Of a stretch of 64,000 nucleotides of DNA, positions 23,428 to 35,772 are shown piece after piece. The stretch lies in NCBI GenBank assembly GCA_029775855.1, contig JARVJZ010000001.1:96001-160000 (forward strand). The letters run 5' to 3'. The notes beneath the pieces were generated by a model that worked only from the letters and a program-made list of their open reading frames with translations, did not search any database and was not told the DNA's origin. Each line of letters begins with the position of its first letter. Positions within the stretch are counted from its first letter, which is position 1. The position numbers and the translations under genes are program-made. The DNA is from Nitrososphaeria archaeon. Its GTDB lineage: Archaea > Thermoproteota > Nitrososphaeria > Nitrososphaerales > JAAOZN01.

Positions 23428-23744
23428 GGTGGCGGGGAGGGCTGGGAGGCTAGCCGTCTCCCGAACCTGAAAACGGCTATACGCAGGGGCCAGCAACCAT
23501 CAGGTAAAACACCATAACCGAAGCACCCGCCAACTAGATGGGAATGAAGCCGCGCTGCGGTGGGTAGCAGCAAGGAGCAACCCTCTCGAAGGAGAGGTGT
23601 TGACTCTCAACCGCCGAACCGGGTCAGGTCCGGGAGGGAGCAGCCCTAAGGCGGGGCTGTCTACGCTGCTGCATCTACGTGGTAGACTTCATCTGGTTGG
23701 AGATGGGGTTTGGCTGTGGTGTGAATTCTGGTGGAGCCGCCACC
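23428..23744 (+). ncRNA. ffs: Archaeal signal recognition particle (7S SRP) RNA
   Basis: Terminal helix GGTGGCGG/CCGCCACC; helix 6 CTCTC-GAAG-GAGAG; helix 8 GGTCAGGTCC-GGGA-GGGAGCAGCC; ~317 nt, GC-rich. Confidence 0.93.
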
Positions 23745-28898: not shown

Positions 28899-28904
28899 AA
28901 GCAG

Positions 28905-28912
28905 TTTAAATT
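28905..28912 (+). promoter_or_regulatory. Putative TATA box of the tRNA-Leu gene
   Basis: TTTAAATT preceded by a purine-rich BRE-like AAAAGCAG, 32-42 nt upstream of the candidate tRNA 5' ends. Confidence 0.55.
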
Positions 28913-28946
28913 AGAGCAGAGCAATAGGGGGTATAGGCGGGGGCGC

Positions 28947-29106
28947 GCGGGGGTTAGTCCAAACACCCCCAACCCGAGCCAGGTCAAAGCCTTGAGTTAG
29001 GCGACAAAAGGGGGCAGAGCAAAAGCGCCTAAACTCAAGATCTGCTCGGTCAGCCGTTCGTGGGTTCAAAACCCTCTAGTAGAGGGTGAAACTCCCACCC
29101 CCCGCA
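28947..29106 (+). tRNA. tRNA-Leu(CAA) with four BHB introns (28956-28972, 28988-29008, 29018-29032, 29071-29092)
   Basis: Spliced 85 nt: GCGGGGG TT CCCG AGCCAGGTCAA AGGG G GCAGA CTCAAGA TCTGC TCGGTCAGCCGTTC GTGGG TTCAAAT CCCAC CCCCCGC A; full cloverleaf with long variable arm and A73; each insert has a BHB-type junction. Confidence 0.9.
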
Positions 29107-29119
29107 CTAGTATTCTTAG

Positions 29120-30433
29120 CTAGGTTTGTTGATAGGGTTCTATTTTTAATATGGGTCCATCTTTTTGAATTACTTTTACTTTTTGCCCCTTGGTTATGTC
29201 TTGGTCTGAGGTTGCTTGCCAATATTCTGCTCCGCATCTCACTAAGCCAATCTTTCCCTTAGGTATATCTTCAACCGCAACACATACGCCGCCTACGATG
29301 TCTCCTATTGCTGGCGGTCTCTTTCTGGCTTGAATCACCTTATAGGCTGCAAATATGAAGAAGGCGCCGATAATCAACGGAGCCAATAGTGTGATTAGAA
29401 GTAGTTGATTTAGTAAGTCAGTTGAAACAAGCCACGGGCCGGTGGGCAGCGTTGGGAAGAGTAGTATCCCGCCGATTATTATGCAAGCAAAGCCGGCGCC
29501 GCCAAGCAACCCGAAGCCTGGTGTGAATAACTCAGCGAGAAGCAAAACCGCACCCAAAGCTATCAGCAGTATCCCACCTATGAATATTCCCGTTAAGCCA
29601 AGACCTATTAAGCCAAGTATAAGGCAGATACCTCCTATTACCTCGCTGCCGTAGCCTGGTGATGTTAACCCAAAGATTAGTGCGTAGAGTCCTGCAATAA
29701 AGAGTATATAGGATATTATTGGATCTGATAGAACCTTCAGGATCTGTAGTCTTAGACTTGGTTCCCACCACACAATCTTTAGCCCTTCTGTTTTGATTAC
29801 GTATTCTCCTTCAAGAAGTTCTACTTTGACCCCATCTATCATCTTAAGCAGTTCTTCAACGGAGTCAGCTACATACTCTATTACCCCCATCTTTTTCGCT
29901 TCTTCTGCTGAAAGGTTTAGGTTTTCTTTTATGAAGCGTGCCGCTGTAGTCTCATTTCTTCCGTGCATCCTTGCCTTTTCAACCAAAAATGTGGTTAAGG
30001 CGTTGATAGTTTTCGTGTCATTTATAGGTTGTGTGCCGCCTAAGGGGTTATAGGCTACTGGCTGGGCTGAACCTAGGATTGTGTGAGGCGCCATAGATGC
30101 TATATGTGTGGAGAGGAGGATGTATGTGCCTGCTGACCAAGCTCTAGCGCCCTTTGGGTAAACGTAGCCTATTACTGGCACGGTTGAGCGCTCTATTCTA
30201 TCTATTATCTTTATTGTAGCATCTAGATTCCCGCCTGGTGTATCAATTAATATTATAAGAGGAGTGTTAAGTGCTTCCGCTTCTCTTAGTGCTTCATCTA
30301 TTACCTCACTTGACATCGCGGTTATGGTTCCATCTACCTTTACTGCTATTATGTGGTCTGCTTTTGCTGAATATGCTGCGCCTAAAAGCGTTAATAGAAG
30401 AATAAATATTAGGGGTATCGCTTTCTTCAGCAC
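29120..30433 (-). CDS. nfeD: NfeD membrane-bound serine protease (ClpP-class N-domain, TM region, OB fold)
   Basis: IDTPGG, AWSAGTYI, MAPHTILGSAQPV; C-terminal GAEYWQA; paired with the SPFH gene. Confidence 0.93.
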   Translation of the reverse strand: MLKKAIPLIFILLLTLLGAAYSAKADHIIAVKVDGTITAMSSEVIDEALREAEALNTPLIILIDTPGGNLDATIKIIDRIERSTVPVIGYVYPKGARAWSAGTYILLSTHIASMAPHTILGSAQPVAYNPLGGTQPINDTKTINALTTFLVEKARMHGRNETTAARFIKENLNLSAEEAKKMGVIEYVADSVEELLKMIDGVKVELLEGEYVIKTEGLKIVWWEPSLRLQILKVLSDPIISYILFIAGLYALIFGLTSPGYGSEVIGGICLILGLIGLGLTGIFIGGILLIALGAVLLLAELFTPGFGLLGGAGFACIIIGGILLFPTLPTGPWLVSTDLLNQLLLITLLAPLIIGAFFIFAAYKVIQARKRPPAIGDIVGGVCVAVEDIPKGKIGLVRCGAEYWQATSDQDITKGQKVKVIQKDGPILKIEPYQQT

Positions 30434-34179: not shown

Positions 34180-35772
34180 TTACGCTCCCTTCACTACTTC
34201 CTCGATGAGTTCAGCAGCTTTATCTCGCCCAATATCAACGATATATGGTCCAAGCCTCGGTCCTCGGTCTGAAGATATGAGAATCTGGTATAGTGTTTTA
34301 AAGAGCTCTTGGGGCTTAAGTCCATTGCGTTTTGCTGCCTCAAATATACTGTTTTGAATCTGTTGAGCATCGCTTAGAGCCCTTATAGATTGCGCAACTT
34401 CAGCTAAAGCCTTTTTCTGCTCCTCACTTAAAGCAAGTTTAACAGACTCATGCCTCGTAAAGTCCTCAGCCCAGTTCGCGGCTAACAAGATCTTTTTCTT
34501 CAACTCTTCATCTACTTCTTTTACGAATCCATAGGCTGCTAGCTTCTTTGAAACAAACTCTACCATTGACTCCTTGGGTGCTACTGATGCTAACTGTGTT
34601 AGAAGTCTATACGGTATATGTGTTGATGGCTTCGCCGGGGGCTTTAGAAGATTCACATATTCATAGAGCCCACGCATCTTCCTCAGCTCCGCTGGGTTTT
34701 CAATCTTCTTTACTCCAAAATACACATCTTCCAGCATGTCGTATTCATCCATATAGTTAGGAACATCCTCAACTGAGAGACTTCTTGTTCCTACAACTCT
34801 CTTAAACATCAGCAGGAGAAGCGATTGTGGTGAACCGTATCTGAGCCAAGTCTGAGGTGTAAAAACGTTTCCAACAGATTTAGATATCTTTCTACCCGAC
34901 TTATCCAAGAATAGCTCATACCTAATATGATAAGGATGCGGATGATTTAGAATATTATCCGATATCCAATCATTAACTTTAACTGAATCAGCTATATCTT
35001 TACCATAAGCTTCAAACCTTATGTCAAACGCAGCCCATCTTGCCGCCATCTCGCCTTTCCAACTCAGCTTACCCTTACCCTCTAACACATTCAACTCCCC
35101 TTCATGCCCACATCCCTTAACCCATCTCCCACCTATTTCAGCACCTTCACATCTGTACGCTATAGTGTGTTTCTCCTCATTGTATGAGTATGCCACAGCC
35201 ACGTAAAGCCTACCGCAACGTTCACAAAGAGGGTAGTAGGGTAGTATTTGCTCAAACTTCTTCTGCCCTATAACCTCAGCTATATATTGCCCTATCTTCT
35301 GCGCATTATTCAGTATAGTCTGAATCTGACCGTTTAGAAGCCCCTTCTGATATGCTTCAGCCCCACTCTGGAATGTATACTCTATACTCAAACGATCTAA
35401 AGCGTCAAGCAACATAGCGCTCATATGAACACCATAAGAGCGGTGGCAGCCAAAAGGATCTTGTATCAAAGTTACAGGTTTTCCGATATCATCTTCTAAC
35501 CACTTTGGTAACCCAGCCGGAACCTTACGCAGACCATCAAAGTCATCTGAATAAGCTATCAACTCAGACCTAAAGCCCATATCTTCTAACGCCAGCTTGA
35601 CACCATACGCTCTAACCGCATCACTTAAGCTTCCAACATGTGGTATTCCTGAAGCTCCAAGACCACTTTCAACTCTTAAATACGTTAGAGACCTACCTAT
35701 CTGCTTCTCTCTTTCAATAACCTTAGATGCCACTTTATCAAGCCATGTGCCGCGTCCTATTTTTATGCTCAA
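34180..35772 (-). CDS. lysS: Class I lysyl-tRNA synthetase
   Basis: SGIPHVG, DGLRKVP, GKLSWK, KISKSVGN, GPRLG. Confidence 0.96.
   Translation of the reverse strand: MSIKIGRGTWLDKVASKVIEREKQIGRSLTYLRVESGLGASGIPHVGSLSDAVRAYGVKLALEDMGFRSELIAYSDDFDGLRKVPAGLPKWLEDDIGKPVTLIQDPFGCHRSYGVHMSAMLLDALDRLSIEYTFQSGAEAYQKGLLNGQIQTILNNAQKIGQYIAEVIGQKKFEQILPYYPLCERCGRLYVAVAYSYNEEKHTIAYRCEGAEIGGRWVKGCGHEGELNVLEGKGKLSWKGEMAARWAAFDIRFEAYGKDIADSVKVNDWISDNILNHPHPYHIRYELFLDKSGRKISKSVGNVFTPQTWLRYGSPQSLLLLMFKRVVGTRSLSVEDVPNYMDEYDMLEDVYFGVKKIENPAELRKMRGLYEYVNLLKPPAKPSTHIPYRLLTQLASVAPKESMVEFVSKKLAAYGFVKEVDEELKKKILLAANWAEDFTRHESVKLALSEEQKKALAEVAQSIRALSDAQQIQNSIFEAAKRNGLKPQELFKTLYQILISSDRGPRLGPYIVDIGRDKAAELIEEVVKGA

Follow-up and report, generated by a model that had tools for sequence, protein, structure and literature searches.

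How many introns can a tRNA gene carry and still yield a tRNA, and what allows one of them to persist within reach of the acceptor stem? Both questions are raised by a locus in the genome of a Nitrososphaeria archaeon (GenBank assembly GCA_029775855.1). The window, by which we mean the whole 64,000-nt stretch of DNA analyzed here (contig JARVJZ010000001.1, positions 96,001 to 160,000 of the forward strand), contains at 28947-29106 (+) a sequence that a preliminary description had read as a tRNA-Leu(CAA) gene interrupted by four bulge-helix-bulge (BHB) introns. We find such a four-intron gene, matured by the splicing route proposed below, to be the best explanation of the locus, with a probability of roughly 0.88. 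The gene is almost certainly functional.

Exons, introns and the restored cloverleaf

The gene consists of five collinear exons within 160 nt. Exon 1 (28947-28955, 9 nt) supplies tRNA positions 1-9, exon 2 (28973-28987, 15 nt) positions 10-21, exon 3 (29009-29017, 9 nt) positions 22-30, and exon 4 (29033-29070, 38 nt) positions 31-59, with the anticodon loop containing CAA, the variable arm, and the 5' part of the T arm. Exon 5 (29093-29106, 14 nt) provides positions 60-73 and ends in the discriminator A; CCA is not encoded. Removal of the four inserts, which measure 17, 21, 15, and 22 nt and lie at 9/10, 21/22, 30/31, and 59/60 in standard numbering, leaves an 85-nt class II tRNA-Leu(CAA), and the coordinates and sequences match the preliminary description base for base. 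ARAGORN recognizes this spliced product as tRNA-Leu(caa); its acceptor stem has 7 bp, its variable arm is long, and its discriminator is A73. The assignment to class II tRNA-Leu follows from the 14-nt variable region with its stem, the A at 29106, and the CAA anticodon; A73 and the long variable arm serve archaeal leucyl-tRNA synthetase as identity elements. A split or permuted tRNA gene was ruled out by the collinearity of the exons, and a self-splicing group I or II intron by the size of the inserts (15-22 nt) and by the lack of any such Rfam family in the window.

All four introns have 3-nt bulges, with the cut placed after the second bulge base. Intron 1 (28956-28972, at 9/10) is an HBh' motif in which the central helix GGGG/CCCC forms all four pairs; the bulges are TTA and AAC, the inner helix (h') has 2 bp, and the outer helix (h) has 1 bp. 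Intron 2 (28988-29008, at 21/22) takes the relaxed HBh' form, with GGTC/GACA providing three pairs plus G.A, AAA bulges on both sides, a 4-bp inner helix (GCCT/AGGC), and an outer helix of 0 bp. Intron 3 (29018-29032, at 30/31) is hBHBh'-like: GGGC/GCCT forms 4/4 pairs between the bulges AGA and AAA, and the inner and outer helices have 2 bp each. Intron 4 (29071-29092, at 59/60) is a full hBHBh' motif, with 4/4 pairs in TTCA/TGAA, the bulges AAA and ACT, a 6-bp inner helix, and the 5-bp T stem as its outer helix. With a central helix bounded by 3-nt bulges, a flanking helix of at least 2 bp in every case, and a cloverleaf restored by their removal, the four inserts are BHB introns; all the bulge, helix, and cut-site details originally claimed for them were reproduced.

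The preliminary description had suggested that standard scanners might miss the gene, and two of them do. ARAGORN finds no tRNA at the unspliced locus, whether its intron option is on or off, and the Rfam tRNA model remains below its gathering threshold there. We employed a custom finder that scores the cloverleaf and allows jumps solely at BHB-compatible introns of 10-70 nt. Applied to window positions 28900-29150, its top solution contained the same four introns at a raw score of 32/33, while none of 150 dinucleotide-preserving shuffles of this interval yielded a solution that passed the filters. Genome-wide, solutions were compared by an adjusted score, which is the raw score after a per-intron penalty: accepted tRNAs reached at least 29, clearly spurious solutions reached at most 26.9, and the Leu(CAA) gene obtained 29.1. 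ARAGORN's intron mode was seen to mislabel multi-intron tRNAs, turning Gln(TTG) into Gly(acc), Pro(GGG) into Ser(aga), Phe(GAA) into Arg(cct), Tyr(GTA) into Ile(gat), Trp(CCA) into Ser(gga), and Ala(CGC) into His(gtg).

Intron series in relatives and tRNA complement of the host

A DNA search over 201 genomes of the same order recovered intron-bearing Leu(CAA) homologues in 21 of them, with one to four introns at the same sites. Hereafter, G000 denotes the genome of the studied stretch, and G, L, and f codes denote the genomes, loci, and families of its relatives. Four introns are present in two genomes of the same genus, G000 and G001. Three are present in six genomes in all: five combine 9/10, 21/22, and 30/31, namely G002 and G003 (same genus), G008 and G024 (family f6), and G010 (f8), and one, G005 (f3), combines 21/22 and 30/31 with its own, distinct 59/60 intron of 31 nt. 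The pair 21/22 and 30/31 alone occurs in 11 genomes of f2, f4, f11, and f12, plus one gene truncated by a contig end, and 30/31 is the sole intron in one genome, G007 (f5). At each site the insertions are base-exact, and the exons are nearly identical across families. Within the genus, all four genomes share a single mature sequence, with introns that differ in length and sequence.

Each intron can be followed through this series. The 9/10 intron is found in seven genomes of three families and is precisely absent at its site in 14 others; its central helix has 4/4 pairs in all seven loci, and its inner helix comes in four differing self-complementary versions (GT/AC, GTG/CAC, ATGGT/ACCAT, and TTGGC/GCCAA). 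The 21/22 intron is present in 20 of 21 full-length loci, missing only in L012 (G007). Its central helix has 4/4 pairs in two of these 20 loci, 3/4 in 17, and 2/4 in one, and the changes among relatives are mostly one-sided; in the contig-end locus L026, which stands outside the counts, the intron was recognized by eye. All 21 full-length loci possess the 30/31 intron, with 4/4 central pairs in 20, and here exon and intron have changed in compensation, giving GGGT/ACCT in L012 and GGAC/GTTC in L027 versus GGGC/GCCT. The 59/60 intron is shared by G000 and G001, in the latter at 25 nt and with a longer inner helix, and is absent in the congeners G002 and G003. The 31-nt intron of G005 shows a compensating change of its own (TTCG/CGAA versus TTCA/TGAA), and the central helix is fully paired (4/4) in all three loci with an intron at this site. 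The compensating changes at 30/31 and 59/60, and those of the 9/10 inner helix, indicate that these helices have been kept. Taken together, the precise insertions and the maintained helices of the relatives rule out a pseudogene with random insertions and fix the intron boundaries.

The order in which the introns arrived was considered on a quick maximum-likelihood tree of class I lysyl-tRNA synthetase (LysRS), which covered 30 genomes without G001 and G010. The LysRS gene itself, at 34180-35772 of the window, looks ordinary. The tree groups f1, f6, and f12 (SH-aLRT 83) and leaves the branching among the three open; G000 is sister to G002 and G003, G005 falls outside the f1/f6/f12 group, and G007 is more basal. 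We infer a stepwise gain, in which 30/31 would have come first, followed by 21/22 and then 9/10, with 59/60 last, within the genus. The 59/60 intron of G005 may be a separate gain, with which the LysRS tree is compatible. A metagenome scan for alleles resembling intron 4 returned two other tRNAs and no additional four-intron allele. A further sequence, L085 (metagenome FWPU01073299.1), is a Leu(TAA) of another organism whose 59/60 intron is much like intron 4, beginning ACCCT and ending AGGGTGAAAC.

Could the gene be real and its intron map wrong, with other boundaries or with fewer, longer introns? The finder's second solution (10/11, 28/29, 30/31, and 59/60) scores only one point less, stretches of A at both the 21/22 and the 30/31 junction would let the cut slide by one base with an unchanged product, and for L005 and L008 the per-intron penalty leads the finder to an incorrect two-intron solution. 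However, the boundaries are set by relatives that lack individual introns: L012 for 9/10 and 21/22, the f12 genomes for 9/10, and G002 and G003 for 59/60. The alternative map also yields an 82-nt product with a worse anticodon stem, and we regard a different map as highly improbable.

The need for this tRNA was assessed in the host genome, a 1.51-Mb assembly of six contigs (98% complete, 43% G+C, 2% estimated contamination); the DNA runs that contain the stretch are hot-spring metagenomes. We resolved 39 tRNAs, 36 with the finder and three by eye. Among the 36, no intron was called in 17 genes, one in seven, two in 10, three in one, and four in one; those resolved by eye are Ser(CGA) with two introns, Gln(CTG) with two, and Ser(TGA) with three. 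This amounts to at least 41 introns in the 39 resolved genes, with Leu(CAA) as the most interrupted, and 26 of the 34 finder-called introns lie away from 37/38. ARAGORN's scan of the window confirmed that its other three tRNAs are intronless, as the preliminary description had stated, and the TTG codons to which it had pointed are indeed in use, at 11.2 per 1000 codons in long open reading frames. Rfam, ARAGORN, a blastn-short search with the mature sequence, and the finder all failed to reveal another tRNA-Leu(CAA) gene in the genome. Seven expected isoacceptors were not found either, namely Arg(TCT), Arg(CCT), Gly(GCC), Leu(TAA), Leu(GAG), Val(GAC), and the third CAT tRNA; nine extra finder anchors gave spurious solutions only among the completed runs, and a genome-wide scan for interrupted T arms returned mostly false positives. 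Since seven isoacceptors are hidden, calling this the only Leu(CAA) gene means that no other was found.

Two further tRNA-like loci, both outside the window, were met during this census. At G000:C2:37304-37345 (+), an orphan 3' tRNA part comprises a perfect T arm, CCGCGAG as the acceptor 3' strand, an A, and CCA. The 250 nt upstream contain no 5' strand to match it, and a naive search for a 5' half was negative; the part may belong to a split (trans-spliced) or permuted tRNA gene. At G000:C3:77965-78039 (-), a Thr(CGT)-like gene, the second in the genome, has a G at position 8 and reads TACAAAT in its T loop, which is unusual; ARAGORN calls the gene Thr(cgt), and Rfam matches it over positions 9-63 only. 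The normal Thr(CGT) gene is at G000 C4:173694-173767. Within the window, 23430-23742 holds an ordinary-looking archaeal SRP RNA (Rfam, 135 bits).

A decaying tRNA pseudogene that is never matured, its UUG codons being read by tRNA-Leu(UAA), would be rejected by standard scanners just as this locus is, would be left uncovered by RNA as it is in two runs, and would sit in a genome whose Leu(TAA) is likewise not located. What such a relic would not show is exons conserved across genus and families while the introns diverge and their BHB pairing is kept by compensation, nor a cloverleaf as near to perfect as 32/33. With no other Leu(CAA) gene found and the same kind of introns in other tRNAs of the genome, we consider a pseudogene highly unlikely. 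That the insertions are an artefact of assembly or binning is scarcely credible even for a six-contig assembly with 2% estimated contamination, as in at least seven DNA runs from three studies the contigs contain no less than half of the sampled words of the stretch (the top three runs may be the source samples), one contig spans 28784-29400 with one difference, and three other species of the genus, independently assembled, carry the same introns. Loose ends at 29033 in the DNA runs X4 and X7 were rejected as spliced RNA: they are DNA contigs of another organism from the same hot-spring samples, in whose Leu gene a 5' part free of 9/10, 21/22, and 30/31 introns runs straight into an exon-4-like sequence.

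Candidate enzymes for removing the four introns are at hand. Two paralogs of the splicing endonuclease EndA and the ligase RtcB are encoded in the genome. The 185-aa EndA retains Tyr, His, and Lys and aligns over its full length, loop region included, to its closest matches, the crenarchaeal catalytic subunits 3p1z_B, 2cv8, and 2zyz_B, from the Aeropyrum, Sulfolobus, and Pyrobaculum enzymes. In the 180-aa EndA, encoded at L022:1465-2007 (- strand of L022; G000:C1, about 5.1 kb), Ala replaces the catalytic His of the M. jannaschii enzyme (1a79), which is nonetheless its closest and best match. This His-less protein gave no match to solved crenarchaeal structural subunits at E values up to 0.001, and the non-catalytic EndA subunit of the lineage may be of separate origin. 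With one catalytic and one His-less member, the pair would fit an (alpha-beta)2 enzyme, the type described in the accessible text of a 2014 review as cutting relaxed motifs (PMC4033280). The preliminary description had listed the EndA type for checking; what the genome shows is two paralogs, with the triad kept in one of them.

Several points weigh against a four-intron gene matured in this way. The central helix of intron 2 has only three Watson-Crick pairs plus G.A, the inner helices of introns 1 and 3 are only 2 bp long, and 4-bp helices are weak at hot-spring temperature. The adjusted score of 29.1 is the lowest among the accepted tRNAs, so the finder alone is not decisive. The seven missing isoacceptors, Leu(TAA) and Leu(GAG) among them, leave room for a hidden Leu(CAA) or for reading of UUG by Leu(UAA). 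The EndA heteromer, with its assembly and substrate range, is a proposal drawn from sequence. Two metatranscriptome runs hold 10% of the sampled words, and their contigs cover 29110-29400 only, with no joints; this lies beyond the gene and has no bearing on its transcription or splicing. Finally, the order of intron gain was read from a quick tree of a single gene in which some forks stay open, and losses are possible.

A leader copy of the acceptor 5' strand

What sets the 9/10 intron apart is the sequence in front of the gene. A TTTAAATT box at 28905-28912 (+), 35-42 nt upstream of the mature 5' end, is a candidate archaeal TATA-type promoter element; its TTTAAAT motif is kept by the four genomes of the genus, with flanks that vary, and it probably serves as the promoter. 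A T5 run at 29143-29147 (+), read from the sequence alone, is a possible transcription stop. At 28937-28943 (+), in the leader, stands GCGGGGG, a perfect 7/7 copy of the acceptor 5' strand and, we propose, a decoy for it.

The presence of such copies follows the presence of nearby introns. A leader copy was found in 25 of 25 loci with an intron at 8/9, 9/10, or 10/11 and in 0 of 17 without one. For Leu(CAA), all seven loci with the 9/10 intron have a perfect GCGGGGG copy, at -8 to -25, and none of the 13 loci lacking that intron exceeds 4/7 matches. Only Leu(CAA) and Gln(TTG) have a 7/7 copy among the 36 resolved tRNAs of G000. The Gln(TTG) gene (G000:C1:16901-17009, -) is interrupted at 10/11, and its acceptor strand, which is not that of Leu(CAA), reads AGCCCGG and is perfectly copied. 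We collected its orthologues from 22 genomes, one gene at a contig end being not judgeable: the copy accompanies the 10/11 intron in 17 of 17 genes (7/7 in 11, 6/7 in six) and is seen in 0 of 4 evaluable genes without the intron. In family f14, acceptor strand and leader copy both read AGCCCCG, where elsewhere both read AGCCCGG, and five of the six imperfect Gln copies (AGCTCGG, GGCCCGG) keep their pairing to the 3' strand through G.U. The Leu(CAA) gene of an Asgard archaeon (Sifarchaeum), interrupted at 8/9, is preceded by a 7/7 copy at -12. The Leu(CAA) leaders of the order are otherwise unconserved, and the seven copy bases are intact across families in which LysRS is only 63-65% identical. 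For introns farther inside, the G000 genes for Asp(GTC), with an intron at 13/14, and Arg(CCG), with one at 12/13, have 5/7 and 3/7 copies, respectively. We also observed that the 10/11 intron of Gln(TTG) resembles the Leu(CAA) 30/31 intron (29018-29032), as both begin AGCAAAA and have GCGCC ahead of the closing AA; this likeness could reflect shared origin or shared constraint.

Geometry suggests why a copy might be needed. When an intron lies at 8/9 to 10/11, acceptor bases make up the exon side of the central helix, so the BHB motif and the 7-bp acceptor stem are mutually exclusive. We compared precursors with and without the leader by minimum-free-energy folding (RNAfold, nearest-neighbor model, 37 C). 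With the leader, the copy is predicted to pair with the 3' acceptor strand while G4-G7 pair with the C run of the intron; without it, the acceptor stem is predicted to form, leaving intron 1 unpaired and with no intron-1 helix. The folds of Gln(TTG) show the same leader-dependent switch. The Leu(CAA) and Gln(TTG) genes each have a TATA-like box some 35-42 nt ahead of +1, and with the usual archaeal TATA-to-start spacing these boxes would place the transcription start near the first base of the leader copy.

The proposed route runs as follows. One precursor would be transcribed from the TTTAAATT box, and each intron would fold locally as its own BHB, the four motifs being non-overlapping. The 9/10 central helix would draw on G4-G7 in competition with the 7-bp acceptor stem; the leader copy at 28937-28943 would bind the 3' acceptor strand and thereby free G4-G7 for the intron. 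The splicing endonuclease, composed of the catalytic EndA and its His-less paralog in the (alpha-beta)2 manner, would then cut in the 3-nt bulges, and RtcB would ligate the five exons. After splicing, the true acceptor strand would displace the leader copy, RNase P would take off the leader, and CCA would be added.

We lean, by a small margin of confidence, toward the leader copy acting as a decoy for removal of the 9/10 intron, a claim drawn from the co-occurrence counts and the predicted folds. Its generalization, that archaeal introns at 8/9 to 10/11 are tolerated only where the leader carries a decoy version of the acceptor 5' strand, a folding aid found in Thaumarchaeota-like and in Asgard lineages alike, is evenly balanced between true and false. 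A functionless copy, the main rival, is unlikely. The copy could be a footprint of intron arrival, for instance a short duplication of the 5' end at insertion: its place just upstream, at a distance of 8-25 nt, is what a local duplication would produce, and three separate tRNA or lineage cases could share a single insertion mechanism, the mode of BHB intron gain being called an open question in the available text of a recent preprint (10.64898/2026.10.13.758758). In families f6 and f8, moreover, the copy is 9 nt long (GCGGGGGTT or GCGGGGGTC) and resembles a second 5' exon. A mere footprint is harder to square with seven bases conserved across families amid unconserved leaders, with a copy that changed along with the acceptor stem in f14, with the G.U pairing retained by five of the six imperfect copies, and with the functional effect that folding predicts. 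On account of the 9-nt copy, a second 5' splice site, which would yield the same mature tRNA or one that differs by one base, can be drawn in L005, L006, and L007 (G008, G010, and G024). Of the two sites, the proximal one has the better inner helix (5 bp versus 1).

Other observations count against the decoy. Intronless Pro(TGG) in G000 has a 6/7 copy, and Ala(CGC), which lacks an intron at these sites, has 7-bp complementarity to its own 3' strand at -35 (identity 4/7). One 6/7 Gln variant (CGCCCGG, in G013) loses its end pair. The related genomes are not independent, and kinship inflates the leader-copy counts; the Leu acceptor stem never varies, so covariation comes from Gln alone. The folds are predictions for 37 C, and transcription of the copy depends on the inferred start. 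If the decoy is true, it explains how a 4-bp splicing helix wins over a 7-bp acceptor stem, and it would represent an undescribed folding aid, encoded in the transcript, that decides where tRNA introns persist. It would also offer a testable rule for where they survive and a new annotation signal. For these reasons, we consider the leader copy to outweigh the intron count in importance.

Relation to known multi-intron tRNAs

Is a four-intron tRNA new? A maximum of three introns per tRNA is given in the consulted text of the 2014 review (PMC4033280), of PMC3218864 and PMC3293823, and of the tRNAscan-SE 2.0 paper (10.1101/614032), and the preliminary description had taken this figure as current. 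It has been superseded by an October 2026 preprint on three Asgard families (10.64898/2026.10.13.758758), whose accessible portion puts the average at 2.2 intervening sequences per tRNA gene, with up to five in one. A 2024 study (PMC11291895) likewise describes, in the part available, several introns in over half of the tRNA genes of three Asgard genomes. Our literature search found no report of an archaeal four-intron tRNA. As for the sites, the list of intron positions in the review, so far as its text was accessible, includes 3/4 and leaves others under "etc."

We also scanned public archaeal genomes, one per species, for a 12-40 nt insert at this T-loop site in genes with this Leu 3' end. 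The 59/60 intron is widespread in Leu tRNAs: 52 stretches matched, spread over Thermoplasmata, Nitrososphaeria, several Asgard groups, DPANN groups, and Thermoproteus, and in three of them the finder called at least four introns: L062 (which is G001), L069, and L066. L069 (JAHFOH010000074.1, a metagenome-assembled genome (MAG) labeled "Thaumarchaeota archaeon") is a Leu(CAA) with introns at 14/15, 29/30, 37/38, and 59/60. L066 (JAECRW010000011.1, a Sifarchaeum MAG) is a Leu(CAA) with five, at 8/9, 30/31, 37/38, the variable arm, and 59/60, at a borderline adjusted score of 27.5. L069 shares only the 59/60 site with the studied gene, which suggests that Leu(CAA) is a recurrent target. The suggestion that this might be an unreported four-intron tRNA therefore holds in that the gene belongs to a rare class, and fails in that L069 and L066 stand in public MAGs; given these and the preprint's five, four introns are rare, not unique, and not above the published maximum.

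The preliminary description had named Thermoproteales and other TACK archaea as known bearers of multi-intron tRNAs; the lineage here is not Thermoproteales but Nitrososphaerales, in the Nitrososphaerota, and thus thaumarchaeote-like in a broad sense. According to the accessible text of the pertinent sources (PMC4033280, PMC4090602, 10.1101/614032), Thermoproteales such as Pyrobaculum and Thermofilum are alike in having short BHB or relaxed introns, several per gene, at non-canonical sites that include 30/31 and 59/60, and two EndA paralogs as in the heterotetrameric relaxed-motif type. They differ in lineage and in reaching up to three introns where four are found here; the studied gene also has the 9/10 intron in reach of the acceptor stem, along with the leader copy. 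At least 41 introns in 39 tRNA genes exceeds the Thermoproteales mean of 0.84 per gene given in the tRNAscan-SE 2.0 paper, as far as its text was available. The Thaumarchaeota introns covered by the clade-specific BHB model of tRNAscan-SE 2.0 come from the same broad lineage and, in that portion of the paper, are many and non-canonical; the studied gene differs in its four introns. Within the accessible parts of the literature searched, such a degree of tRNA interruption was not described for this lineage. Heavily interrupted tRNA genes are now seen in a lineage outside Thermoproteales and Asgard, the one- to four-intron versions of its members form a natural series for studying intron gain, and the gene exemplifies how standard scanners can miss an essential tRNA.

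Asgard multi-intron tRNAs come close in other respects. In the accessible text of 10.64898/2026.10.13.758758 and PMC11291895, they have up to five introns, many of them in the D arm, and are missed by standard annotation, and the Sifarchaeum Leu(CAA) of L066 carries a leader copy too. They belong to another phylum, and in the present case each intron is backed singly by its presence and absence in relatives. The word "leader" is absent from the main text of the preprint, and no leader copy of the acceptor strand was found described in the text of the literature searched. The gene and its leader copy may together constitute a possible new variant of multi-intron tRNA. The split and permuted tRNAs of Nanoarchaeum equitans, Caldivirga, and Cyanidioschyzon offer the nearest parallel for the leader, in that discarded flanks pair so that an endonuclease substrate forms (PMC4090602, in its accessible part). 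Their flanks build the BHB itself, whereas here, with collinear exons, the leader would mimic the acceptor 5' strand.

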